This document shows, one piece after another, positions 11,598 to 55,174 of a DNA stretch of 64,000 nt. Positions within the stretch are counted from its first letter, which is position 1. The number at the start of each line of letters is the position of its first letter. The stretch is taken from assembly GCF_044647545.1 (NCBI RefSeq), contig NZ_CP172818.1; one strand, given 5' to 3'. The notes beneath the pieces were generated by a model, which saw nothing but the letters and a program-made list of their open reading frames with translations, made no database searches and was not told where the DNA came from. The stretch is from Escherichia coli. GTDB taxonomy: Bacteria > Pseudomonadota > Gammaproteobacteria > Enterobacterales > Enterobacteriaceae. Position numbers and translations under genes: made by a program.

Positions 11598-11674
11598 GCG
11601 CCCTTAGCTCAGTTGGATAGAGCAACGACCTTCTAAGTCGTGGGCCGCAGGTTCGAATCCTGCAGGGCGCGCCA
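11598..11674 (+). tRNA. argU: tRNA-Arg (anticodon UCU), ending in CCA
   Basis: 77-nt sequence GCGCCCTTAGCTCAGTTGGATAGAGCAACGACCTTCTAAGTCGTGGGCCGCAGGTTCGAATCCTGCAGGGCGCGCCA; cloverleaf-compatible; recognised argU. Confidence 0.95.
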
Positions 11675-11689
11675 TTACAATTCAATCAG

Positions 11690-12853
11690 TTACGCCTTCT
11701 TTATATCCTCCATAATTCCAGAGTGGGACATATTTGGGACATTATCACCAAAAATGTCGTCTATTTTCCTCGCATGCTCTGTCAAATGATTAGGCGCAAG
11801 GTGAGCATACCTACGAACCATTTCTATGGACTCCCATCCGCCCATTTCCTGAAGCACTGATAATGGGACGCCTGACTGAATCAGCCAGCTTGCCCAGGTG
11901 TGTCTGAGGTCATGGAAACGGAAATCTTCAATTCCTGCACGACGACAAGCTGATAGCCATGATGTCTTGCTGTCGATGCGCATCTTCCTGACCGCAGGCG
12001 TTGATGTTCCATCTGCTCGCTTAGCCGCCTTGGTATGTACAAACACCCATTTGTGATGCTTGCCTATTTGATCACGCAACACTTTACAGGCGGTATCGTT
12101 CAGCGCCACACCAATGGCGCGGTTTGATTTGCTCTCTTCTGGATTCACCCAGGCAACTCGTCGCTGCATGTCGATTTGTTGCCATTCCAGATTTATGATG
12201 TTCGACTTTCTCAGACCAGTTGCCAGCGCAAACTTGACGACAGATTTCAGTGGTTCGGGGCACTCATCAATAAGGCGTTTTGCTTCCTCCTTTTCCAGCC
12301 ATCTGACTCGCTTGTTTCTGACCGCTGGTATCTTGATGACAGGCGCTTTTTCCAGCCACTTCCAGTCGCGTTCTGCAGCACGGAGAATGGCCTTTATCAT
12401 GGCAAGATGCTTTGCCTTTGTCTGAGTTGATACTGGCTTTGGTTCATAAACAGGCAGTTCTTTACCTTTCCTGATGGCGGCCTGAACTTTCTGTTTCCAT
12501 ATTTCTTTCGTCTTTCTGTTATGCATTCTGCTTACAGCAGAGTAAATCTTTGCCTCCGAGATATCTTTAAGCCTTATACCCTCAAAATGTTCAAGCCAGA
12601 ACTCAATCCGGCTTTTATCTGAATCGAGAGATTTTTTATCAGCTTTTTCCTCAAGCCATCTTAGGCAGGCCTCTTCAAAAGTGACATCAGGTAAATCCCC
12701 TAGCTTTTCTACTCGCCAGAGTTCTGCTTTTCGCTTGTCGTGCAACTCCTGAGCTTGCCGCTTGTCCTTTGTGCCAAGAGATTCCTTAATTCGTTTCCCG
12801 CCCGGGAGCGAATACGAGGCATACCATATTTCATTTCTGCGGAAGAGTGACAT
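11690..12853 (-). CDS. intD: prophage tyrosine integrase
   Basis: 387-aa ORF 15 bp downstream of the tRNA; C-terminal R..HxxR..Y catalytic region ([13 protein letters not shown]). Confidence 0.9.
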
Positions 12854-14879: not shown

Positions 14880-15189
14880 GCCTGTGTCCATATTACGTGG
14901 GTAGGATCAACCAGCATAAATCAGGCTGCGGCTAAAATGGCACGGGCAGGTCTTCTGGCTATCGAAGGTAAGGTCTGGCGAACGGTGTATTACCGGTTTG
15001 CTACCAGAGAAGAACGGGAAGGAAAGGTGAGCACGAATCTGATTTTTAAGGAGTGTCGCCAGAGTGCCGCGATGAAACGGGTATTGAGGGTATATAAAAG
15101 AACATCAATGGGTACACAATGATGAAACAGGTGAGTTGAGTTCAAACTGTAGTACAATTCTCTCCAGTTTGAACAGGAAAGAATATTCT

Positions 15190-15522
15190 ATGAACCCTTA
15201 TATTTATCTTGGTGGTGCAATACTTGCAGAGGTCATTGGTACAACCTTAATGAAGTTTTCAGAAGGTTTTACACGGTTATGGCCATCTGTTGGTACAATT
15301 ATTTGTTATTGTGCATCATTCTGGTTATTAGCTCAGACGCTGGCTTATATTCCTACAGGGATTGCTTATGCTATCTGGTCAGGAGTCGGTATTGTCCTGA
15401 TTAGCTTACTGTCATGGGGACTTTTCGGCCAACGGCTGGACCTGCCAGCCATTATAGGCATGATGTTGATTTGTGCCGGTGTGTTGGTTATTAATTTATT
15501 GTCACGAAGCACACCACATTAA
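15190..15522 (+). CDS. emrE: small multidrug resistance efflux transporter EmrE
   Basis: 110 aa from MNPYIYLGGAILAEVIGTTLMK, four transmembrane helices, conserved Glu in the first helix. Confidence 0.9.
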   Translation: MNPYIYLGGAILAEVIGTTLMKFSEGFTRLWPSVGTIICYCASFWLLAQTLAYIPTGIAYAIWSGVGIVLISLLSWGLFGQRLDLPAIIGMMLICAGVLVINLLSRSTPH

Positions 15523-15553
15523 AAATAATTTGTTTCTAAACGACTAAAATATG

Positions 15554-15586
15554 GAGGCTCTTATATTTATATGAGCCTCGTTTTAT
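15554..15586 (+). terminator. candidate rho-independent terminator after emrE
   Basis: GAGGCTC / GAGCCTC stem with AT-rich loop followed by GTTTTATGCTTTTT. Confidence 0.45.
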
Positions 15587-15778
15587 GCTTTTTGTTAATG
15601 TCTTTATTTTTTTATGTATTCTTTTGTGCTTTCAAGATTATGGCGTAAGAAAATTGCAATACGATTATTGTTGTATATTCAAGATAATGTGACCTTAATT
15701 GTCTTTTTAAATAAAAATTAAACAAAAATTATATCCCACCACTAAGGTTTATAAAAGCATACGTTAGCAGGTGTCACC

Positions 15779-17305
15779 ATGAAAAAAGCCATAGCATATA
15801 TGCGATTTTCATCACCAGGTCAGATGTCTGGCGACTCATTAAACCGACAGAGAAGACTTATTGCTGAATGGTTAAAGGTAAATAGTGATTATTATCTTGA
15901 TACCATAACATATGAAGATTTAGGATTAAGTGCATTCAAAGGAAAGCATGCACAATCAGGAGCTTTTTCGGAATTTTTAGATGCTATAGAGCATGGTTAT
16001 ATATTGCCAGGAACTACATTGTTAGTTGAAAGTCTGGACAGACTTTCAAGAGAAAAAGTCGGTGAAGCGATTGAACGTCTGAAATTGATTTTGAATCACG
16101 GTATTGATGTTATAACTCTTTGCGACAATACAGTCTATAATATTGACTCTTTGAATGAGCCATATTCATTAATAAAAGCCATACTTATAGCACAAAGGGC
16201 AAATGAAGAAAGCGAGATAAAGTCAAGTCGGGTTAAATTATCATGGAAGAAAAAACGGCAGGATGCACTGGAATCAGGTACGATTATGACGGCGTCTTGT
16301 CCGAGATGGCTCTCCTTAGATGACAAAAGAACGGCTTTTGTTCCAGACCCCGACAGGGTGAAAACTATTGAGCTAATTTTTAAACTCAGGATGGAAAGGC
16401 GCTCATTGAATGCAATAGCCAAGTATTTAAATGATCATGCTGTAAAGAATTTCTCAGGAAAAGAAAGTGCATGGGGACCTTCTGTAATTGAAAAATTATT
16501 AGCGAATAAAGCTCTGATAGGTATATGCGTACCTTCATATCGTGCAAGAGGTAAAGGAATAAGTGAAATCGCTGGCTATTATCCCAGAGTCATATCAGAT
16601 GATTTGTTTTACGCTGTACAGGAAATTCGGTTGGCACCTTTTGGTATTAGCAATAGTAGCAAAAATCCTATGTTGATAAATCTACTTCGAACAGTTATGA
16701 AGTGCGAGGCTTGTGGTAATACCATGATTGTTCATGCGGTATCTGGAAGTTTGCATGGCTATTATGTTTGTCCGATGAGAAGACTGCATCGATGTGACAG
16801 GCCATCAATAAAGAGAGATTTGGTTGATTATAATATCATTAATGAGTTGCTTTTTAATTGTAGTAAAATCCAACCAGTTGAAAACAAGAAAGATGCTAAT
16901 GAAACTTTAGAGTTGAAAATTATTGAGCTCCAGATGAAAATTAATAATTTAATTGCTGCATTATCTGTTGCGCCTGAAGTTACCGCTATAGCAGAAAAAA
17001 TCAGAGTATTAGATAAGGAATTACGAAGGGCTTCTGTATCATTAAAAACTTTGAAGAGTAAAGCGGTGAGTTCACTTGGTGATTTTCATGCTATTGACTT
17101 AACCAGTAAAAATGGGCGAGAGCTATGTCGTACACTTGCCTATAAAACATTCGAAAAAATCATAATCAATACAGATAATAAAACCTGTGATATCTATTTT
17201 ATGAATGGCATTGTTTTTAAACACTATCCTTTAATGAAAACAATATCCGCCCAGCAGGCGATAAGTACTCTCAAATATATGGTTGATGGTGAGGTTTATT
17301 TTTGA
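15779..17305 (+). CDS. ybcK: large serine recombinase family protein
   Basis: 508-aa ORF; N-terminal resolvase-like catalytic motif (AYMRFSSPGQ), central recombinase domain, Cys-rich zinc ribbon (CEACGN...CPMRRLHRCD), C-terminal coiled-coil-like region. Confidence 0.85.
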   Translation: MKKAIAYMRFSSPGQMSGDSLNRQRRLIAEWLKVNSDYYLDTITYEDLGLSAFKGKHAQSGAFSEFLDAIEHGYILPGTTLLVESLDRLSREKVGEAIERLKLILNHGIDVITLCDNTVYNIDSLNEPYSLIKAILIAQRANEESEIKSSRVKLSWKKKRQDALESGTIMTASCPRWLSLDDKRTAFVPDPDRVKTIELIFKLRMERRSLNAIAKYLNDHAVKNFSGKESAWGPSVIEKLLANKALIGICVPSYRARGKGISEIAGYYPRVISDDLFYAVQEIRLAPFGISNSSKNPMLINLLRTVMKCEACGNTMIVHAVSGSLHGYYVCPMRRLHRCDRPSIKRDLVDYNIINELLFNCSKIQPVENKKDANETLELKIIELQMKINNLIAALSVAPEVTAIAEKIRVLDKELRRASVSLKTLKSKAVSSLGDFHAIDLTSKNGRELCRTLAYKTFEKIIINTDNKTCDIYFMNGIVFKHYPLMKTISAQQAISTLKYMVDGEVYF

Positions 17306-17499
17306 GTAATAATCTTTTTTACGTCGTGCTATAGTAAGAAAGTGCAAGACAGAATTAATTATCTTTGACGAAACTTAATGGGTAATTACTTTGTTTGCTC
17401 CCACAAGCGAGTTTTGTACGGCTGTATTGGGGTAGTAAATGAGCTATACAATCTTAATCATTTGTTAGGTGAGAACTCTTGGTCGCAGATTCAAATACT

Positions 17500-17549
17500 G
17501 AAAATACGTGACAAATTATTATGAGCAAAATGGTGTATGTCACGTATTT
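17500..17549. repeat. 13-bp perfect inverted repeat pair (AAAATACGTGACA ... TGTCACGTATTTT) separated by 24 bp
   Basis: Seen directly in the ybcK-ybcL intergenic region. Confidence 0.6.
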
Positions 17550-17762
17550 TGAATGGTAGGTTAAAAAATAACACCGACTTTCGTAGGTATTACTAATAAT
17601 AAAGCAGAGTTTTTAGATAGTATCAATGTGCTTTGTGTATATTGTGGCAAATAATTGGGTTGCTGAGGGGTAGAATGTGATTGCTTTTGCATGAACACTT
17701 TATGCATAATGAGATAAAGGAATATCAAATAAAGAACGATAGGTCATAACAAAGAGGTTTTT

Positions 17763-18312
17763 ATGAAAACACTTATCGTTTCAACTGTATTGGCATTCAT
17801 AACATTTTCTGCGCAGGCTGCAGCATTTCAGGTCACTAGTAATGAAATAAAAACAGGAGAGCAACTTACAACGTCTCATGTCTTTCTCGATTTGGGTGTG
17901 AAGGTGGTAATACATCGCCCTCATTAACCTGGTCTGGTGTTCCTGAAGGTACCAAAAGCTTTGCCGTAACTGTATATGATCCAGATGCACCTACAGGCAG
18001 TGGTTGGTGGCATTGGACTGTTGTTAATATTCCAGCAACAGTAACATATTTTCCGTTGATGCAGGGAGACGTGATGGAACAAAACTGCCGACTGGTGCTG
18101 TTCAAGGCCGAAATGATTTTGGCTATGCTGGGTTTGGTGGCGCATGTCCTCCTAAAGGAGATAAACCACATCATTACCAGTTTAAAGTATGGGCTCTAAA
18201 AACTGAAAAGATTCCTGTAGATTCTAACTCCAGCGGAGCGTTAGTTGGTTATATGCTTAATGCTAATAAAATCGCAACCGCTGAGATAACACCAGTTTAT
18301 GAGATAAAGTAG
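17763..18312 (+). pseudogene. ybcL: periplasmic PEBP/UPF0098 family protein with two frame breaks in this assembly
   Basis: Signal peptide MKTLIVSTVLAFITFSAQA; the protein is recovered across three frames with shifts near 17884 (T-run) and 18054 (C-run); corrected length would be 183 aa. Confidence 0.7.
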
Positions 18313-18321
18313 GGTGAGAGT

Positions 18322-19119
18322 ATGCTGGCAAGAGGTAAGACTAACTTAAAGATCGAAGAAATACGGATGCATAAACATCATGAGATTCATAGGGTTAAGC
18401 CTCTTATGCCAGCTTTGTGTCGTATCCGTCAGGGAAAGAAAGTTATCAATTGGGAGACGCATACTTTAACTGTTGATAATAATCAAATAATATTATTTCC
18501 TTGTGGTTATGAATTTTATATTGAGAATTATCCTGAAGCAGGGCTTTATCTTGCAGAAATGCTTTACTTACCCATTGATTTAATTGAGAGTTTCCAAAAA
18601 CTTTATACGGTAACTGATCAAATACGTAACAAAACAAGTTTCTTTTTACCTCAGAATCCTGAGTTAATATATTGTTGGGAGCAACTAAAAACATCTGTTT
18701 CCCGAGGCTTCTCAACTAAAATTCAGGAGCACTTAGCAATGGGCGTTCTACTTTCGTTAGGAGTGAATCATGTTAATCATTTACTTTTATCATATAGTAA
18801 ACAATCATTGATAAGTCGTTGTTATAACCTGCTGCTATCCGAACCCGGCACAAAATGGACAGCAAACAAGGTTGCTCGATATCTCTACATTTCTGTTTCT
18901 ACATTACATCGCCGTCTAGCAAGCGAGGGGGTAAGTTTCCAAAGTATACTGGACGATGTGAGGTTAAATAATGCGTTGTCTGCTATACAAACGACGGTAA
19001 AACCTATAAGCGAGATTGCCAGAGAAAATGGTTATAAGTGTCCTTCTCGTTTTACTGAAAGATTTCATAATCGTTTTAATATAACACCAAGAGAGATAAG
19101 AAAAGCTTCCAGAGAGTAA
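18322..19119 (+). CDS. ybcM: AraC-family transcriptional regulator
   Basis: 265-aa ORF with C-terminal AraC-type helix-turn-helix. Confidence 0.85.
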
Positions 19120-24971: not shown

Positions 24972-25342
24972 GCAGAGTCACCGCGATTATCTCCGCTCTG
25001 GTTATCTGCATCATCGTCTGCCTGTCATGGGCTGTTAATCATTACCGTGATAACGCCATCGCCTACAAAGAACAGCGCGATAAAAAAGTCAGTGAGCTGA
25101 AGCAGGCGACCGCCACCATTACTGACATGCAGCAGCGCCAGCGTGATGCTGATGCACTCGATGCTAAATACACGAAGGAGTTAGCTGATGCGAAAGCTGA
25201 AAATGATGCTCTTCGGCGCAAGCTTGATAATGGTGGTCGGGTGCTCGTCAAAGGAAAATGCCCTGTGCCATCCTCAGCCGAAACCTCCAGCGCCTCCGGC
25301 ATGGGCAATGATGCCACCGTCGAACTCAAAGACCGAGAATAA
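24968..25342 (+). CDS. rzpD: Rz-like inner-membrane spanin subunit (reading frame as it stands in this sequence)
   Basis: N-terminal transmembrane segment [21 protein letters not shown], coiled-coil-like region; frame terminates at 25342 while the following Rz-like C-terminal peptide lies in the +1 frame. Confidence 0.6.
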
Positions 25343-25445
25343 AAACTATCCAGTTAGCGACGAATATCTGGACCCAATTATCGCGACCAAAACAGCACTG
25401 AGAACGCTTCAGGAATTCATCAGGACGCAATGTCCTTCGAGATAG
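25188..25445 (+). CDS. rzoD: Rz1-like outer-membrane lipoprotein spanin subunit, +1 frame inside and extending beyond the Rz frame
   Basis: [12 protein letters not shown] lipobox, proline-rich PKPPAPPAW; true C-terminus uncertain. Confidence 0.45.
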
Positions 25446-25602
25446 CGATTATTTTACTCATCATTCCCTTCACATCTGGCTCTGTAGACAGTTCACTTCT
25501 GAAATCCAATAAACATCTCATTCTGATGCTTGATATTGAGCATTTTGCGCGCGGTAAGGGGCTGCGTTGAGATAAGAACCAGTAAAAATAAACCAGGATT
25601 TA

Positions 25603-25625
25603 GCCTCGCATTCGCGGGGCTTTTT
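25603..25625 (+). terminator. candidate rho-independent terminator of the lysis operon
   Basis: GCCTCGC ATTC GCGGGGC hairpin (7-bp stem with one G-U pair) followed by TTTTT. Confidence 0.5.
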
Positions 25626-25709
25626 ATTGCCATTACAAAAGCCACTTCCTACAGAGTGGCTTTGATAATGGTTTATACCCTACACGGGATAACTTAACTG
25701 ATATCCCTT

Positions 25710-25874
25710 TTAAAGGATAAAGGTATTCAAGCCTGACACATCATGCGCTGTATCGTCGCCGTATTCCCGTATTAACAGAGACCGTAGCCCGACGGGGAAC
25801 TCCTTCTGCGCGAGTGTGCGGGAATAATCAAAAACGATGCACACCGGGGTTACCGGGTACACATATTTCATCAT
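25710..25874 (-). CDS. hypothetical small ORF (54 aa)
   Basis: ORF MMKYVYPVTPVCIVFDYSRTLAQKEFPVGL...; no recognisable family; below ORF-track cutoff. Confidence 0.2.
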   Translation of the reverse strand: MMKYVYPVTPVCIVFDYSRTLAQKEFPVGLRSLLIREYGDDTAHDVSGLNTFIL

Positions 25875-25919
25875 GCCAGCGAGTCCGGTTCTGGCACGGA
25901 AGAAACCGGACGTTATGAT

Positions 25920-26330
25920 TTAGTGCGGAAATATTTGTGTAGTGTTCTGAATGTTCTCAGTAAAGAGTAATGAATTATCAAAGGTATAGTAATACCTTTT
26001 GTTTTCGTGGATATTTGTAATCCATCTGAAAACCCCTGCTGTAGCAAGATTTTTCCTGTATTCGTAAAATGATAACTCTCCTGATTTGAATCCTTTTAAG
26101 GTGGCTTCTATAAGGCATTTATTTTTTGAAAATCTTACATTTACAACCTTACCCTGTCCTTTTATTAAAACCGTATTATCGTTTTCAAGAACAAGATGAA
26201 TATTCTCTGTAGCTAAATAGTAAATGTAATGTGAGACATTGTGACGTTTTAGTTCAGAATAAAACCAGTGATAGTTTAAATTATTTCGCACTTTATCGAA
26301 TATTTGTTTAAAAATGGCAACCTGAGCCAT
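25920..26330 (-). CDS. ybcV: prophage protein YbcV (DUF1398-like)
   Basis: 136 aa from [31 protein letters not shown]. Confidence 0.75.
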
Positions 26331-26662
26331 TGTGGTACCTTCCATGTGATATGAGGGGCGTAGTCTGCACGATTATCTAAATTGCTTCAATCTGGTCTGA
26401 TTTTTGAGAATTTAAATAAGCAGATTAGAAGGGAAACGCTGAAATTCATGTTGTTTTCAATAAACAAAGAATGGACGAAAAATCATAAAGACAATACTGC
26501 CAGGACAGGTTAAAAACTATCTTAATACACATTCGATGGTTAGATGTTTAATCATGTATAGAACATCATACCTAAAATACTAAAAGCAAAAGAAACGAAG
26601 GAATCCTCTATAATTAATCTATCAAAGAAGAGAATACGTATCTGACTAAGAGACTAATCAAC

Positions 26663-26896
26663 TCAGCAATCCTCGTATTTAGGGAATACAATACGTCCAG
26701 TGTCACTCTTTTCTTTGTTTGCTTCAGGAGAAACTCTTTTTTCTGAGCACAGTCTCCGGCGGCAGGCTTCAATGACCCAGGCTGAGAAATTCCCGGACCC
26801 TTTTTGATCAAGAGCGATGTTAATTTGTTCAATCATTTGGTTAGGAAAGCGGATGTTGCGGATTGTTGTTCTGCGGGTTCTGTTCTTCGTTGACAT
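26663..26896 (-). CDS. ylcI: small DNA-binding-like prophage protein (YlcI/DUF3950-like)
   Basis: 77-aa ORF MSTKNRTRRTTIRNIRFPNQMIEQINIALDQKGSGNFSAWVIEACRRRL; start codon uncertain. Confidence 0.5.
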   Translation of the reverse strand: MSTKNRTRRTTIRNIRFPNQMIEQINIALDQKGSGNFSAWVIEACRRRLCSEKRVSPEANKEKSDTGRIVFPKYEDC

Positions 26897-27095: not shown

Positions 27096-27107
27096 GGGCG
27101 GCGACCT
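27096..27107 (+). other. lambda-type cosN cohesive-end sequence GGGCGGCGACCT
   Basis: Exact lambda cohesive-end 12-mer preceded by GATCCGACAGGTTACG; CGTTTCC/GGAAACG repeats (terminase small-subunit binding elements) lie between it and nohD. Confidence 0.8.
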
Positions 27108-27284
27108 CGCGGGTTTTCGCTATTTATGAAAAATTTCCGGTTTAAGGCGTTTCCGTTCTTCTTCGTCATAACTTAATGTTTTTATTTAAAATACCCTCTG
27201 AAAAGAAAGGAAACGACAGGTGCTGAAAGCGAGCTTTTTGGCCTCTGTCGTTTCCTTTCTCTGTTTTTGTCCGTGGAATGAACA

Positions 27285-27830
27285 ATGGAAGTCAACAAAA
27301 AGCAGCTGGCTGACATTTTCGGTGCGAGTATCCGTACCATTCAGAACTGGCAGGAACAGGGAATGCCCGTTCTGCGAGGCGGTGGCAAGGGTAATGAGGT
27401 GCTTTATGACTCTGCCGCCGTCATAAAATGGTATGCCGAAAGGGATGCTGAAATTGAGAACGAAAAGCTGCGCCGGGAGGTTGAAGAACTGCGGCAGGCC
27501 AGCGAGGCAGATCTCCAGCCAGGAACTATTGAGTACGAACGCCATCGACTTACGCGTGCGCAGGCCGACGCACAGGAACTGAAGAATGCCAGAGACTCCG
27601 CTGAAGTGGTGGAAACCGCATTCTGTACTTTCGTGTTGTCGCGGATCGCAGGTGAAATTGCCAGTATTCTCGACGGGCTCCCCCTGTCGGTGCAGCGGCG
27701 TTTTCCGGAACTGGAAAACCGACATGTTGATTTCCTGAAACGGGATATTATCAAAGCCATGAACAAAGCAGCCGCGCTGGATGAACTGATACCGGGGTTG
27801 CTGAGTGAATATATCGAACAGTCAGGTTAA
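27285..27830 (+). CDS. nohD: terminase small subunit (lambda Nu1 homologue)
   Basis: 181-aa [49 protein letters not shown]...; recognised Nu1 sequence. Confidence 0.9.
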
Positions 27831-28548
27831 CAGGCTGCGGCATTTTGTCCGCGCCGGGCTTCGCTCACTGTTCAGGCCGGAGCCACAGACCGCCGTTGAA
27901 TGGGCGGATGCTAATTACTATCTCCCGAAAGAATCCGCATACCAGGAAGGGCGCTGGGAAACACTGCCCTTTCAGCGGGCCATCATGAATGCGATGGGCA
28001 GCGACTACATCCGTGAGGTGAATGTGGTGAAGTCTGCCCGTGTCGGTTATTCCAAAATGCTGCTGGGTGTTTATGCCTACTTTATAGAGCATAAGCAGCG
28101 CAACACCCTTATTCCAGCTGGCTTCGTGGCTGTTTTCAACAGTGATGAGTCATCGTGGCATCTCGTTGAAGATCATCGGGGTAAAACGGTTTATGACGTA
28201 GCGTCAGGGGACGCGTTATTTATTTCTGAACTCGGTCCGTTACCGGAAAATGTTACCTGGTTATCGCCGGAAGGGGAGTTTCAGAAGTGGAACGGTACAG
28301 CCTGGGTGAAAGATGCAGAAGCAGAAAAACTGTTCCGGATTCGGGAGGCGGAAGAAACAAAAAACAGCCTGATGCAGGTAGCCAGTGAGCATATTGCGCC
28401 ACTTCAGGATGCTGTAGATCTGGAAATCGCAACGGAGGAAGAAACCTCATTGCTGGAAGCCTGGAAAAAATATCGGGTGTTGCTGAACCGTGTTGATACA
28501 TCAACTGCACCTGATATTGAGTGGCCTACGAACCCTGTCAGGGAGTAA
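27805..28548 (+). pseudogene. tfaD: fusion of terminase large-subunit N-terminal fragment to a tail-fibre assembly C-terminal fragment
   Basis: N-terminal ~100 aa match lambda gpA start ([28 protein letters not shown]...), C-terminal part matches Tfa (...[28 protein letters not shown]...). Confidence 0.75.
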
Positions 28549-28602
28549 TCATTGGGATTATGCCGCAGCACGTCTTAAGCAAGAACATGCTGCGGTTGGA
28601 TG

Positions 28603-29187
28603 CTATTTTTTTCCTGAAGCGGAAAACATTACTACAGTACCTTGAACCTTGGTTTTAACATTCTCGAAATGCTCTGAGAGTATATGTGTTAAGCCTTCTT
28701 CGGAATCTTTTGTGTTTGAAAAGATGCCTTTCTGATTGTAAATGCGCATCAGTTTTTGACCGAAGCTATTGTGCACAACTCCATCGCCAAGAATTGTGGC
28801 TCCGTATAGAGTTCCATCGTCAGTTAAGGCCTGCGCCGCATTGCGTATTACACAGCTTTTTGTAGATATATTTCCAGGCAGGCAGTGAAGAAGGTAAGAC
28901 ATGGAAATGGAATCAAATTGACCATGTAACGCCGCGGGATAAGGTTCAAAAACATCATGGCTAATTTTATGTTTAATTTTTGATTCCCCAGCCCTTGTAG
29001 ATGCCGCGTTCAGGCTAGCTTCGTTCAAATCCATTAAAGATATCAGACTACTCTCAGGTACGTGAGTAAGGTAAAACCCAGTTCCAACACCAATATCCAG
29101 ATGGTTGTTACCTAAATGTTCCAGAAAGTGTGGAAGAAGGTGTTCCTTTGTAGGACATCCCCATGCAAGCCGATTTGATACTCCCAA
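28603..29187 (-). CDS. ybcY: SAM-dependent methyltransferase-like protein
   Basis: 194-aa ORF with glycine-rich nucleotide-binding motif (LDIGVGTG); may be a truncated gene. Confidence 0.6.
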   Translation of the reverse strand: MGVSNRLAWGCPTKEHLLPHFLEHLGNNHLDIGVGTGFYLTHVPESSLISLMDLNEASLNAASTRAGESKIKHKISHDVFEPYPAALHGQFDSISMSYLLHCLPGNISTKSCVIRNAAQALTDDGTLYGATILGDGVVHNSFGQKLMRIYNQKGIFSNTKDSEEGLTHILSEHFENVKTKVQGTVVMFSASGKK

Positions 29188-29325
29188 AACCCACCAGTCA
29201 TAAAGCTTTAGGGTAAGTGGTGTGTAAATTCTAGCCCCATCATCTGTGTTTTTTTATTAATTTCACCATGTTATAGTTTTATTTGTGAATTAAATCAATT
29301 ATGGCAATGAATTACAAGGGGTTAA

Positions 29326-29586
29326 ATGCTGCCGCAGCATAGCGATATTGAAATAGCCTGGTATGCTTCAATACAGCAGGAGCCGAATGGCTGGAAGACC
29401 GTCACCACACAGTTCTACATCCAGGAATTCAGTGAGTATATTGCGCCACTGCAGGATGCTGTAGATCTGGAAATCGCAACGGAGGAAGAAAACTCGTTGC
29501 TGGAAGCCTGGAAAAAGTATCGGGTGCTGCTAAACCGTGTGGACACTTCCGTAGCACCAGATATCGAGTGGCTTATTCAACCATAA
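29326..29586 (+). pseudogene. tfaX: tail-fibre assembly protein C-terminal fragment
   Basis: 86-aa ORF whose C-terminal 50 aa closely match the C-terminus of the tfaD fusion. Confidence 0.6.
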
Positions 29587-30131
29587 TAAACAGTATGTAT
29601 ATCATAGGTTATTAATTGTGAGTTTTTTCGGTGTGTTATTTGTTTGTTTGATGTTATGCTTTTGCGCCCCAAAAGGTTGTTTAGATGTATTTTATCAATT
29701 GATTTTCAATGTCGTTTAATAAAGAAAAATTAAGCAAGCTGGATGTTGGTTTTTTGTTAATTGAATGGTTCTAATAATGTTTTTTTACTGTTGTTGAATG
29801 TGACTTGATAAGAAATGCAAGTAAAAATGATACTCTTTTTATTTTAAATTCAAACGGTTGACATATATATAGCAAGAGGTTTCAGGTGCGTTGTAGTGAG
29901 TTTATGTTAATAAAAAGTATAGTAAGCGTTGAAAAATGTAACTTTGAAATACGTTAGAATAAAAAACAATATACATATAATAATTTAATCTTAAATGAAA
30001 TTTATTAAAATTTGCAAACTATAATTTTGTGTATAAAAATATAAATGCACATCATCCTGATTATGATTGTGTATTTAATTGGTTGTTATTTGACTGCTAT
30101 CAACTTGTTTTAATTTTATGATAGGTGCAAG

Positions 30132-30881
30132 ATGGATTATGTTTGCTCCGTAGTTTTCATCTGTCAATCATTTGATTTAATTATAAACAGGAGAGTTATC
30201 TCGTTCAAAAAAAATTCATTGTTTATTGTAAGCGACAAAATTAGAAGGGAGTTACCAGTATGCCCCTCTAAACTAAGAATTGTTGATATAGATAAGAAAA
30301 CATGTTTATCCTTTTTTATCGACGTGAATAATGAGCTGCCTGGCAAATTTACTCTTGATAAGAATGGCTATATTGCTGAAGAGGAACCTCCATTATCGCT
30401 TGTTTTTTCTCTGTTTGAAGGGATTAAAATAGCAGACTCACACTCCCTTTGGTTAAAAGAAAGACTATGTATATCCTTACTTGCCATGTTCAAAAAACGC
30501 GAAAGTGTAAATTCATTTATACTAACAAATATAAATACATTTACCTGTAAAATTACTGGAATAATCAGTTTTAATATTGAGCGGCAATGGCATTTAAAAG
30601 ATATTGCGGAATTGATTTATACGAGTGAAAGTTTAATAAAAAAAAGATTAAGGGATGAAGGAACGTCATTTACTGAAATATTGAGAGATACTAGGATGAG
30701 GTATGCAAAAAAACTCATAACTTCAAACTCTTATTCTATCAATGTCGTAGCCCAGAAATGTGGCTATAACAGTACTTCATATTTCATATGTGCATTTAAA
30801 GATTATTATGGTGTCACGCCATCTCATTATTTTGAGAAAATAATCGGCGTCACAGATGGAATAAACAAAACAATTGACTGA
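30132..30881 (+). CDS. appY: AraC-family transcriptional activator AppY
   Basis: 249-aa ORF with C-terminal AraC helix-turn-helix; AT-rich flanks. Confidence 0.9.
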
Positions 30882-31129
30882 TAATGTTTATTACAAGTTG
30901 CCTACATGTTAATTATAATATTATACAGCGTTTTTTTGATGTGATATTCTGGAACCATTAATTTGTAATTGGGTTGCTGTCGCCTATTTTATACATGCTA
31001 TAATTGATGGTTTTCTATGTGATTTAGTTAATAACCTTCTGGGTTTATTTTAAGGGTTAATTGTTACATTGAAATGGCTAGTTATTCCCCGGGGCGATTG
31101 TCACCTCGGGGAAATTTTAGTTGGCGTTC

Positions 31130-32083
31130 TTAAAATGTGTACTTAAGACCAGCAGTAGTGATGAAGTTATAGTTTTCTATGCCTGCACCATTTTTGCTGT
31201 AGTCTGAAGTGTTATCATTGTGATCATAAAGTGAAGTATTACCTTTTTTATTCGTAACCCGATTCCATGCGCCTTCAACATAAACTTTTGCGTTAGGTGT
31301 TACGTAATAACCTGCATTGACTGCAACAGAATAGTAATTTTGGTCTTTGACTTTACTGCGATAAGTGATTCTTTTTCCTGGGTCATAGTGCTCATCGTTA
31401 TCAGATGCTTCCACCCAGCCGCTGTATTTAAATGTGCCACCTAGCTCAAAATCTTCATAACGATAACTTCCAGTCAAGCCAATGTAGGGCATTTTAAAAC
31501 GTTGTTTGTAGCCGATTGCTCTTTCTCCATTCGGGAAGGAGCCGATATCATCTCTGAATCCCTCCTCAGAACTGTAGATATAGGAACCACCTCTGGCTGT
31601 AAAGCTATAACGGCTTTCCTGATATCCGGCCATGAGTCCCAGGCGGTAATTGGGTTCGTTGAGGAGCCAGCCTTTGATATTCAGATCAAATTCGTTGGCA
31701 TAATTGAGTTGTGTATCAGGGTGCCTACTTTCATCTGTCCAGGTTCCGGGGTTACTGGAATCCATCCAGTCCTGATCGACCATATTGCCACCTCGGCTGC
31801 CGAGAGTAGTCCAGCCCGCAGCCCCAATAGATATCTGGGGCATCAAATCCCAATTAATTGCACCTTTAATAATTGCAGCGTTATTGAATTTCCAGTCGAG
31901 TTGACTGACTTTTCGGCCTCCTTCTTCGGCTAGATAAACACGCTCTTTTGTTTTTCCGCTCAGAGTTCCAAGACTAATGTCCGCATTTATGTTGTCAGGA
32001 GTAAACGATAAAGTCTCGGTAGAAGCAAAAGAGCTGATCGCAATAGGGGTTGTCAGGACTATTCCCAGAAGTTTCGCCCGCAT
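31130..32083 (-). CDS. ompT: outer-membrane aspartyl protease OmpT (omptin)
   Basis: 317-aa ORF; recognised omptin sequence. Confidence 0.93.
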   Translation of the reverse strand: MRAKLLGIVLTTPIAISSFASTETLSFTPDNINADISLGTLSGKTKERVYLAEEGGRKVSQLDWKFNNAAIIKGAINWDLMPQISIGAAGWTTLGSRGGNMVDQDWMDSSNPGTWTDESRHPDTQLNYANEFDLNIKGWLLNEPNYRLGLMAGYQESRYSFTARGGSYIYSSEEGFRDDIGSFPNGERAIGYKQRFKMPYIGLTGSYRYEDFELGGTFKYSGWVEASDNDEHYDPGKRITYRSKVKDQNYYSVAVNAGYYVTPNAKVYVEGAWNRVTNKKGNTSLYDHNDNTSDYSKNGAGIENYNFITTAGLKYTF

Positions 32084-32506
32084 AAAAGTTCTCCATTCAA
32101 TCGTTTTAATGATTGAATATGTATTTTTTATATCTAACTTAATGAGTCAATTACATATTGCTCCACTGTTTATATTTTGTTTAGTATTGAATGATTATCA
32201 CAATGCGCTATCTGTTTTTGGTTTAATTATCTGTTATTGTTTCATATTGCGGTTTTACTGTGTGGTTTTTTTATGCTTTTGTGGTGCTTTTATCTATTTA
32301 AGTGCCATGCCTTTAGAGGCATATAAGCGAAAATAGCATGAGGTTTATCCTCAATTACTATGTTTTTTAGTACAAAAAAGAGGGACAAAACTGAGACACA
32401 TAAGGCCTCACAATGGCTTGCAAGGCTTTACATGTTTTGAGGTAGTGGGACGTGTGAGCGCAGAGATGGCGCGGTAAGTTGTTGACTTAAAATGTCGTTC
32501 TAGGAA

Positions 32507-32551
32507 CTTCTAAGTCGTGGGCCGCAGGTTCGAATCCTGCAGGGCGCGCCA
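32507..32551 (+). repeat. 45-bp direct repeat of the argU 3' end marking the prophage right attachment site
   Basis: Identical to 11630..11674 (CTTCTAAGTCGTGGGCCGCAGGTTCGAATCCTGCAGGGCGCGCCA). Confidence 0.9.
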
Positions 32552-32595
32552 TTTCTTCTTCATTTAATCCCGTCTTATCCGTTCCGCTTTGCTCT

Positions 32596-33357
32596 TCACC
32601 ACATCACTTTTTGTCGCTGTTTGGCGAGATAATTCAACGGTGTCAGGCCGTAAAACGCCTTAAAAACAGAGATAAAGTACGACGTGCTGCTATAGCCACA
32701 TAATTGCGCCACCTGAGTGATATTTTTGTTATCCATCAATAACATCTGTACGGCGTAACGCATACGACACTCTGTGACAATCTGGCTATAGCTGGTATTT
32801 TCGTTTTTTAATTTCTTTTTGAGCAGGCTGGGGCTTAAACATAGCGAACTGGCGACAATTCGCAGATTCCAGTAATGCTGAATATCGCTTTGAATAATGC
32901 GGCAGACGCTGTCGCGGACGCTGCTGCGTAAGATATACATCAGTAGGGCAATAAACCGCGATTGCTCAAGAAAGTTAGACAATACGGTAAAAAGCAATGC
33001 GCGCGTCAACTCCGCTTCGCAGGGTTTGCTGGGTTGCTGCTTGCTGTGGTTGGCGGCTAGCCGGAACACTTCCGGTGTACGGCTATGACAAGCGATAACC
33101 GGGGTTGCCAGCCGCGACCAGGGCTTTATACAGGTTAAGTTCTTATTTAAAAACAACAGATAATCGTTGATGATGTTACGGTTGATGTGGGTGATTAATA
33201 CGTGATTTAACGTTGAGAGTTCAATGACGTTATTGTTGCACGCGAAGGCGGCCAGGTAGTTTTTCGGAAGGGTAAACGTAGCATGGTTATTGACGCTTAC
33301 CTCTACCTCTTTTTCGGTCAGGATCACCACGCAAGGTTCACTGCTGCTCAATTGCAT
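32596..33357 (-). CDS. envY: AraC-family porin thermoregulator EnvY
   Basis: 253-aa ORF with C-terminal AraC helix-turn-helix. Confidence 0.88.
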   Translation of the reverse strand: MQLSSSEPCVVILTEKEVEVSVNNHATFTLPKNYLAAFACNNNVIELSTLNHVLITHINRNIINDYLLFLNKNLTCIKPWSRLATPVIACHSRTPEVFRLAANHSKQQPSKPCEAELTRALLFTVLSNFLEQSRFIALLMYILRSSVRDSVCRIIQSDIQHYWNLRIVASSLCLSPSLLKKKLKNENTSYSQIVTECRMRYAVQMLLMDNKNITQVAQLCGYSSTSYFISVFKAFYGLTPLNYLAKQRQKVMW

Positions 33358-33539
33358 TTCGCACTCCTCAGATATCAGAAACTCCGCTCAAAGGATCTAT
33401 GCTTCCTGCATGAGTGATCGGCCCGTTCGCCGATAACGATCTTCTTTCTTTAGCACGCTTTTTAGCAATTAATCTTGATGGAATTCTGACGAGAGCGAAA
33501 GAGGTAAGCCAGGTCGTACCCGACTTACCTGGAGGAGAT

Positions 33540-53702: not shown

Positions 53703-54044
53703 TTATGTTGGCGTTTTCTATTCAGTATAGAAGTGGGAGCGACTGGGCGAGATGCGGAAGTTCTGGAATATTTCTTTTTTTGGTGATGGTGAACTGATTG
53801 TGAGTGAAGCAATTTAGCTACTTTTTCAATGTGGCAAGTTATGGCACAGCTGGCTGGTGGCGAAGAATTTTGACGATTGAGGCATGCAGAAAAAACGGGC
53901 TCAGCTTCAGTTGATCAAATGGGGAGTGAGAAGTCCGAAACAGGATTCACTGTATAAATAAACAGCTATTTTGCTGAGGAAGCGTAAGATAACGGCGGGT
54001 GCCTGAAGCTTTCCGGTTTCAGGTTAACTCTGAGGTCTGGAAAG

Positions 54045-54233
54045 ATGAAGCCCCAGGACGATATTTCTATCAACCCTGGGGCTGCCACTCCAAACCCGAA
54101 CAATTTGGATGGTAGTCCCTTCTTCGCATGGAGGCAATATAAACATGCTGACGAAATATGCCCTTGTGGCAGTCATAGTGCTGTGTTTAACGGTGCTGGG
54201 ATTTACGCTTCTGGTCGGCGACTCGCTGTGTGA
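54045..54233 (+). CDS. mokE: mok-like overlapping reading frame of the hok locus
   Basis: 62-aa ORF overlapping the hok start in another frame, as in hok/mok/sok loci. Confidence 0.35.
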
Positions 54234-55076: not shown

Positions 55077-55174
55077 GCCTGATGCGCTACGCTTATCAGG
55101 CCTACGTGGTCCTGCAATATATTGAATTGGCAAGATTTTTGTAGGCCGGATAAGGCGTTCACGCCGCATCCGGC
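55077..55174. repeat. REP/BIME-type repetitive extragenic palindromes between fepA and entD
   Basis: GCCTGATGCGCTACGCTTATCAGGCCTAC and GTAGGCCGGATAAGGCGTTCACGCCGCATCCGGC in inverted orientation. Confidence 0.8.

Follow-up and report, generated by a model that had tools for sequence, protein, structure and literature searches.

The analysed window, a 64-kb stretch of Escherichia coli DNA, carries a decayed lambdoid prophage of 20.9 kb, which sits between argU and a second, exact copy of the 3' end of that gene (Table 1). Alignment with the DLP12 prophage of K-12 extended over 96% of 23 kb, with 97% identity. Both elements share the argU site, the 47-bp attachment core, the gene order (intD ... 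nohD, tfaD, ybcY, tfaX, appY, ompT), the IS3 and IS5 insertions, the gpA'::tfa deletion joint, the ybcY frameshift and an identical appY. The window is nevertheless not K-12, since overall identity is only about 97%; the bor/ybcV region (25212-26734) is diverged or replaced, aligning only partly and at 83%, and the ompT genes of the window and of K-12 share 98.4% identity. The junction between argU and the integrase gene (803 bp) was 100% identical to loci annotated as intD. The lambdoid order of cos, Nu1, A ... tfa, accessory DNA and attR was found here, colinear with the annotated K-12 DLP12.

Table 1. Features of the DLP12-type prophage and its borders (window coordinates).
Feature	Position	Strand	Basis
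argU, tRNA-Arg(UCU), bacterial integration target	11598..11674	+	ARAGORN; Rfam tRNA; 3' end is the left att core copy
attL core, 47 bp, CTTCTAAG...GCGCCATT	11630..11676	+	Exact 45-mer repeat, extended by att alignment
intD, tyrosine integrase adjoining argU	11690..12853	-	387-aa ORF; same DNA annotated intD in K-12-like and other genomes
Exact match to the lambda cosN 12-mer GGGCGGCGACCT, upstream of the Nu1 gene	27096..27107	+	Pattern search
nohD, terminase small subunit (Nu1 homologue)	27285..27830	+	Pfam Phage_Nu1 E=2.5e-100; annotated nohD in K-12
gpA' terminase N-terminus fused to tail-fibre-assembly domain (aaaD/tfaD)	27805..28548	+	Single ORF: Pfam GpA_ATPase aa 47-102 and Caudo_TAP aa 125-244
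157-nt direct repeat, left copy (tfa 3' end)	28372..28528	+	Repeat search, family D1, 87% identity; pair brackets ybcY
ybcY', class I SAM-dependent methyltransferase pseudogene	28603..29269	-	Pfam; alignment to intact 669-bp allele; phrog_2132
tfaX', tail-fibre-assembly C-terminal fragment	29326..29586	+	Pfam Caudo_TAP E=2e-23, profile positions 75-130 only
157-nt direct repeat, right copy (inside tfaX')	29419..29575		87% identity
appY cassette, 29% GC, found in only some relatives	29556..31083		Breakpoints versus 9 loci; GC
appY, AraC/XylS-family regulator	30132..30881	+	Pfam HTH_18 E=4e-16, HTH_AraC E=1e-11; DNA 100% identical to K-12 appY
ompT, intact omptin outer-membrane protease	31130..32083	-	Pfam Omptin PF01278 E=2.8e-130; phrog_19858
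ompT upstream region, 34% GC, unbroken into phage-side attR arm	32084..32506		Contiguity in phages and 2728 E. coli genomes; arm identical to attP
attR core, right prophage boundary	32507..32553	+	Exact repeat; empty-site alleles join argU to envY flank exactly here
envY, AraC-family regulator, bacterial side of attR, outside prophage	32596..33357	-	Pfam; adjoins argU in empty-site genomes

In the ORF that fuses the terminase to the tail-fibre-assembly domain, homology to intact tfa genes begins at 28110, as determined by breakpoint comparison, and it is at this joint that the head and tail genes have all been deleted. Pfam searches identified no phage structural gene to the right of 29586. 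An Rfam scan of the whole window gave zero matches within the cargo and, near it, only the catalogued 'IS009' element, which lies inside tfaD.

An earlier note on this DNA had placed a methyltransferase-like gene, appY and ompT between the terminase and tail-fibre remnants and the right repeat, a position that the Pfam matches and coordinates confirmed. For the first of these genes, ybcY, the description stands as far as the domain is concerned, but the gene is a pseudogene, with a full extent of 28603-29269. Class I SAM-methyltransferase domains are still recognisable on the minus strand (28603-29187; Pfam Methyltransf_12, E=3e-9); the reading frame is not intact, since an A-run that follows codon 4 has lost 2 bp, which shifts the frame relative to the intact 222-aa allele. 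The same deletion is found in K-12, whose copy is marked as frameshifted by RefSeq. The gene is present in some colinear relatives and absent from others, and strain FDAARGOS_497 lacks ybcY while retaining appY-ompT.

The appY product exhibits the C-terminal double helix-turn-helix of AraC/XylS regulators, according to Pfam. Its gene lies in a cassette with breakpoints (29555/29556 and 31083/31084) that match a step in GC content. This slot has three alleles or more, all bounded by identical breakpoints: appY, an alpha/beta hydrolase gene, or no insert at all. Only 827 E. coli genomes carry appY, which is an exchangeable sub-cassette. In previous work, appY was located in DLP12, its expression was reported to be regulated, with H-NS, ArcA and RpoS as regulators, and AppY was described as rewiring motility, biofilm formation and acid resistance (PMC10057817).

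OmpT covers positions 1-283 of the 283 of the omptin profile (PF01278). The catalytic residues D83, D85, D210 and H212, in the numbering of the OmpT structure, are all present at the expected mature positions. The location of ompT in DLP12 has been described (PMC2588501, PMC5723341), as has its control by sRNA (PMC2588501). Plasmid-borne omptin genes of E. coli belong to the same protein family, and along the gene their DNA is about 90-91% identical (including in H22); unlike the window gene, they are carried by large plasmids without att or phage context, and the similarity ends near the gene ends (query positions 1500-2615).

Base composition differs between the cargo and the neighbouring phage genes, less so for ybcY and the ompT coding sequence. 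GC content is 29% in the appY cassette (25-33% in 300-bp windows), compared to 48.6% in the whole window, 52.5% in the distal flank, 43% in the prophage and 49-55% in the terminase/tfa region. The earlier note had described each of the three genes as embedded in AT-rich DNA; this is true of the appY cassette and of the region upstream of ompT (34%), less so of ybcY (41%), and not of the ompT coding sequence (43.5%). On the basis of published work, H-NS may silence the AT-rich DNA, and the cargo genes may each be transcribed independently. A consensus scan of 28400-32700 returned 12 promoter-like sites, versus 14.7 expected from shuffled sequence, and 4 terminator-like sites, versus 3.1 expected, numbers that do not exceed chance.

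The right boundary was defined by the attachment sites. The 45 bp at 32507-32551 repeat argU 11630-11674 without a mismatch; this 45-mer has two matches in the window, a number reached in 0 of 100 shuffles. Alignment of attL, attR, attP and attB extended the identity by 2 bp, giving a 47-bp core, and an attR of 47 bp has been reported (PMC6379469). In the phages Kati and 2G7b, attP corresponds to the left arm of the window attR (the ompT side), the core, and the right arm of the window attL (the int side), while the attB of strain GF161, for example, has the envY side directly after argU. Together, the four sites have exactly the structure that the Campbell integration model calls for. A second, more distal repeat, which the earlier note had said would displace the boundary, was rejected: no third copy was found in the 64 kb, using either the 45-mer or the 17-mer core, each with 3 mismatches allowed, so that only the two known copies were recovered. 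The repeat at 32507-32553 is the true prophage boundary.

The survey of the integration site covered 5426 complete E. coli genomes. The site was empty, with argU joined directly to envY at the core, in 2538 of the 5426. The argU-intD junction was present in 2721 genomes and the ompT-att junction in 2728; these nearly equal figures are separate totals and not per-genome co-occurrence. Gain or loss of the cargo with the prophage, as first proposed, thus holds at the population level. Linkage to the argU site is not absolute, since in about 350 genomes ompT is present but not joined to the att core; in O157:H7, for instance, the ompT block is found at a different site and the strain's own argU site is empty. 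In B2-like strains, the prophage has been reduced to a remnant of about 3.4 kb, in which attR is mutated and degraded but ompT is kept; ompT can no longer exit there by excision. The B2-type ompT-att region exhibits 91-92% identity, which hints at more than one independent lysogenisation.

The same genes were found in complete lambdoid phage genomes, where the cargo lies between tfa and attP; in the two records that run past attP, those of Kati and 2G7b, int comes next. Kati (PP925833) and PhiR68_2 (PV340576), of 46-50 kb, contain the entire ybcY-tfa'-appY-ompT block at 98-99% identity, adjoining attP; in Kati, int also adjoins attP beside this block, and the integrase next to attP in Kati and 2G7b (NC_049954, genus Nesevirus) is the same as that of the window. 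PhiR68.2 has been employed as a plaque-forming phage (bioRxiv 10.1101/2025.11.03.685801). The ompT-carrying phages (Kati, PhiR68_2, 2G7b, ev243 and PhiR26_1) share with the window the argU-type attP and the order stf, tfa, ybcY, tfa', cassette, ompT, attP, with 97-99% identity over the cargo. They differ from it in being complete genomes of 45-50 kb with head, tail and lysis genes and an intact ybcY; in addition, tfa and ybcY are separated by a DNA invertase in Kati and PhiR68_2. Most hold an alpha/beta hydrolase gene at the position of appY: Kati and PhiR68_2 are of the appY type, and 2G7b, ev243, PhiR26_1, PhiR49_1, PhiR30_1 and Turner of the hydrolase type. Overall, ompT is near-invariant in argU-type lambdoid phages and welded to the phage arm of attP, and the adjacent slot accepts interchangeable cassettes, always at the same breakpoints. 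Our literature search found no relevant paper on 2G7b, ev243 or Nesevirus discussing ompT.

We rejected laboratory contamination, or recombination with the K-12 DLP12, as a trivial source of the phage cargo. K-12 and the blocks of Kati and PhiR68_2 show 18-20 differences (20 in Kati), and the Kati ybcY ORF has the intact length of 669 bp; the Kati block was therefore not simply taken up from a K-12 host. Exchange with hosts other than K-12 is a possible origin.

Together, att structure, empty-site genomes and complete phages carrying the same genes between tfa and attP indicate that the cargo is physically part of the prophage. We regard it as nearly certain that 28603-32553 is the att-proximal, non-essential end of a DLP12-type lambdoid prophage, which entered the argU 3' end by tyrosine-integrase recombination and carries exchangeable cargo. 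Lying between tfa and attP, the segment occupies the position of the lambda b region, and it comprises three independently exchangeable morons, a concept reviewed elsewhere (PMC3594210). These are the ybcY methyltransferase gene, frameshifted here and bracketed by the 157-nt repeat of tfa 3' ends; the AT-rich cassette with appY, whose product acts on host genes as an AraC-type regulator; and an ompT block that directly abuts the phage arm of the att site. As in the lambda b region and classical morons (lom, bor), non-essential DNA lies between the tail-fibre genes and attP, and the cargo has its own composition, an orientation opposite to the late operon, and a presence or absence that varies among otherwise similar phages; the gene content is different, however, and the scan for promoters and terminators gave no more sites than shuffled sequence. 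On this reading, an ancestral phage brought the cargo at lysogenisation, as lysogenic conversion, before loss of the head and tail genes at the gpA'::tfa joint and the IS3 and IS5 insertions produced a defective prophage, in which the cargo now persists as host genes, possibly to the benefit of the host.

It is quite unlikely that some or all of the cargo, especially the appY cassette, entered an already defective prophage and was then picked up by active phages through recombination. Such a history would suit the identical breakpoints of the three or more slot alleles, the 97-99% identity of the cargo blocks between phages and chromosomes, and the homologous flanks that would permit exchange (the tfa repeats and the ompT block); work cited in PMC6379469 also documents that lambdoid phages and defective prophages exchange DNA. 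Because lambdoid phages recombine with resident defective prophages, transfer between a phage and the DLP12 remnant could run either way in a single case. However, both the appY and the hydrolase alleles occur in complete phage genomes. Moreover, ybcY is intact in the phages but frameshifted in K-12 and the window, a pattern that phage-to-chromosome ancestry fits better. Acquisition in situ would also alter only the history, with the cargo still within the prophage and moving with phages.

We consider it extremely improbable that a second argU-targeting element with appY and ompT integrated in tandem beside DLP12, the internal att being lost later. tRNA genes commonly accumulate tandem elements, and att copies can decay, as in the B2-like remnant; yet the searches with the 45-mer and the 17-mer core (3 mismatches) detected no internal att remnant, no second integrase gene is annotated between tfa and attR in K-12 DLP12, and tail genes and cargo occur together in single phage genomes with one attP only. 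Hardly credible either is the view that the cargo forms an island of its own, or belongs to the ordinary chromosome, beside a prophage truly ending at the tail-fibre remnants, with the repeat no boundary or bounding a composite: the sharp composition change at 29556, a cassette that looks foreign even against the prophage, and the lack of phage structural genes beyond 29586 would agree with it, but it is refuted by the attP alignment, in which the DNA upstream of ompT is one arm of attP in complete phages, and by the empty-site genomes, which contain none of the DNA between the two cores and hence no cargo; the cargo inside phage genomes of 46-50 kb also speaks against it.

The reading of ompT and appY as cargo of a DLP12-type prophage is therefore supported, as the earlier note had proposed. 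This status is textbook E. coli biology, established for K-12 DLP12 and already published (PMC2588501, PMC5723341, PMC10057817, PMC6379469). Our analysis adds, modestly, a base-precise boundary in a non-K-12 sequence, counts over 5426 genomes, a description of how the cargo slot is built from modules, and the finding that the same cargo is still present in deposited complete phage genomes. It may be proposed, though we think it unlikely, that ompT is kept for the phage's own benefit (e.g. surface remodelling or exclusion) and that still-active phages, rather than old vertical inheritance, remain the main spreaders of ompT and appY among E. coli lineages. OmpT matters for antimicrobial-peptide resistance and recombinant-protein work, and its absence has been described as pathoadaptive in the virulence of Shigella and EIEC (PMC5723341). 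That ompT and appY ride on a phage explains the patchy distribution of both genes.

The three cargo genes ybcY, appY, and ompT lie physically within the prophage, as the earlier note had held, and this placement was supported by the alignment of attachment sites, by empty sites, and by complete phage genomes carrying the same block. The 45-mer at 32507-32551, taken in the note as the prophage boundary, repeats argU 11630-11674 without a mismatch. We searched the 64-kb window for a further copy, allowing three mismatches, and found none, while a 17-mer core returned the same two sites. In the lambda-like phages Kati and 2G7b, attP consists of the left arm of the window attR, the 47-bp core, and the right arm of the window attL; in the unoccupied site of strain GF161, argU is directly followed by the envY flank. 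The four att sites thus fit the Campbell model base for base and, with the window lacking the more distal repeat that the note named as refuting evidence, the boundary stands where it had been drawn. A 47-bp attR has been described (PMC6379469).

The segment is chromosomal, and its sole tRNA gene is argU (tRNA-Arg UCU, 11598-11674). Of positions 11000-34000 (23 kb), 96% aligned at about 97% identity with the annotated DLP12 prophage region of K-12, where the order is intD to ompT, then envY, ybcH, and nfrA. This makes the window closely related to K-12 DLP12 but distinct from K-12 itself. IS3 and IS5 insertions fall within this colinear alignment. The stretch at 25212-26734 (Rz, bor, ybcV region in K-12) did not align with K-12 except at 25744-26400 (83%), which makes this DLP12 copy a mosaic variant; its ORFs include those for an 85-aa proline-rich lipoprotein-like product (25188-25445) and a 141-aa product (25920-26345). 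Far outside the prophage, Rfam detected a sok antitoxin RNA (53997-54153, + strand, 79.4 bits) and the sRNA ES036 (55098-55139, - strand, 42.2 bits).

Features of the prophage right arm, with the evidence that defines them
Feature	Coordinates	Strand	Basis
Nu1 terminase small subunit	27285-27830		Pfam
gpA terminase N-terminus (aa 47-102) and complete tail-fibre-assembly domain (aa 125-244) in one 247-aa ORF	27805-28548		Pfam
IS009 (RF02111) match within the portion of the fusion ORF that codes for tfaD, 227.8 bits (gathering score 117)	28307-28505	+	Rfam
ybcY module	~28429/28563-29555		breakpoints
Class I SAM-methyltransferase domain (ybcY)	28603-29187	-	Pfam
Tail-fibre-assembly domain, last third only	29326-29586		Pfam
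appY cassette	29556-31083		breakpoints; left edge coincides with the GC step
AraC-type regulator (appY), DNA 100% identical to K-12 appY	30132-30881		Pfam
ompT block, constant, continuing into the att core	31084-32553		breakpoints
Omptin (ompT), full-length, four catalytic residues present	31130-32083	-	Pfam

Pfam confirmed the identity proposed for each cargo gene, with one correction: relative to an intact 669-bp allele, ybcY carries a 2-bp deletion in the A-run after codon 4, a lesion shared with K-12, and is thus a frameshifted pseudogene extending over 28603-29269. AppY and EnvY (32596-33357), both AraC-type regulators, flank attR on its phage and bacterial sides, respectively; they share 44% identity across their C-terminal 96 residues and both match phrog_1450 over their full length, so that the gene adjoining the att site on the bacterial side resembles regulators carried by phages.

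The cargo had also been described as embedded in visibly AT-rich DNA. In the GC profile, this held strongly for the appY cassette (29.1% GC; 25-33% in 300-bp windows) and the ompT upstream region (33.8%), and only mildly for ybcY (40.9%) and the ompT coding sequence (43.5%), with values of 43.4% for the prophage, 48.6% for the whole window, and 52.5% for the distal flank. A second AT-rich stretch (15001-19000, 35-39% GC), in the prophage early region, is probably further accessory cargo, as its K-12 counterpart comprises emrE, ybcK, ybcL, and ybcM; no + strand ORF of at least 90 aa covers the ybcL position (~17770-18320).

The fusion ORF upstream of the cargo is the scar of one deletion, with a joint near 28109/28110, by which all head and tail genes were removed. 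A pattern search found the 12-mer GGGCGGCGACCT (27096-27107), an exact match to lambda cosN, roughly 180 bp upstream of Nu1; on this basis, a packaging site may be retained in the defective prophage. A 25-nt inverted repeat is present at 27204-27260.

Pairwise breakpoints against nine loci defined three modules. On either side of the ybcY module lies one copy of a 157-nt direct repeat derived from tfa 3' ends (28372-28528 and 29419-29575, 87% identity), and strain FDAARGOS_497, which lacks ybcY and keeps appY-ompT, has a single copy; homologous recombination across this repeat could plausibly add or remove the module. JNEC-KY202, 2G7b, and O157:H7 have a 1.5-kb alpha/beta hydrolase gene in place of the appY cassette, and B2-like strains have nothing there. 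We infer that the modules are independent transcription units; in consensus scans of 28400-32700, promoter and terminator sites were no more numerous than in shuffled sequence.

Among deposited phage genomes, those of the Escherichia phages Kati (46 kb) and PhiR68_2 (49.7 kb) contain the whole 4-kb block, with 98-99% identity, and a variant of it was found in 2G7b, ev243, PhiR26_1, PhiR49_1, PhiR30_1, PhiR29_1/2, and Turner. The annotated phage order is lom, stf, tfa, (invertase), ybcY, tfa', cassette, ompT, and attP, followed by int in Kati and 2G7b, whose records run past attP; the cargo thus occupies a position equivalent to the lambda b region. A simple pick-up of the Kati block from a K-12 host was rejected, since it shows 20 differences from K-12 and an intact ybcY. 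PhiR68.2 has been used as a plaque-forming lambda relative (bioRxiv 10.1101/2025.11.03.685801).

Over 5426 complete E. coli genomes, the empty argU|envY junction was present in 2538, the argU-intD junction in 2721, and the ompT 5' end contiguous with its upstream region and the att core in 2728; the near equality of the latter two, compared as totals over the genome set, implies that ompT is nearly always present at the right end of argU prophages of this type. The ompT gene was found in 3078 genomes, appY in 827, and the whole K-12-like 28000-33500 arrangement in 552.

That the cargo would be lost or gained with the prophage held within limits. In SSGNw2 and GN03590, the element has shrunk to argU, int', tfa', an intact ybcY, and ompT (~3.4 kb), envY is absent, and the attR copy has 4-5 substitutions; ompT in these strains has in effect become a fixed gene of the host, and the identity of their ompT-att region to that of the window, no more than 91-92%, suggests that it was acquired long ago or separately. 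O157:H7 has an empty argU site, and in strain 7636 (L009 1666-8520) the block of ybcY, tfa', the alpha/beta hydrolase gene, and ompT adjoins minE, not argU, with an interrupting IS66-family element and an IS1203 truncating the block 113 bp upstream of ompT. Plasmid omptin genes differ in being ~90% identical and without phage context.

Overall, the observation was confirmed with two small corrections and its interpretation is supported; as to mechanism, Campbell-type integration at argU, the location of the cargo within the att-proximal non-essential arm, and the loss of structural genes from the prophage could each be shown. Carriage of ompT and appY by DLP12 is an already known phenomenon: appY, a DLP12 gene under the control of H-NS, ArcA, RpoS, and DpiA/B, regulates genes of the host for acid resistance, biofilm, and motility (PMC10057817); ompT, also a DLP12 gene, is controlled by the OmrA/B sRNAs (PMC2588501), and its absence is pathoadaptive in Shigella and EIEC (PMC5723341).
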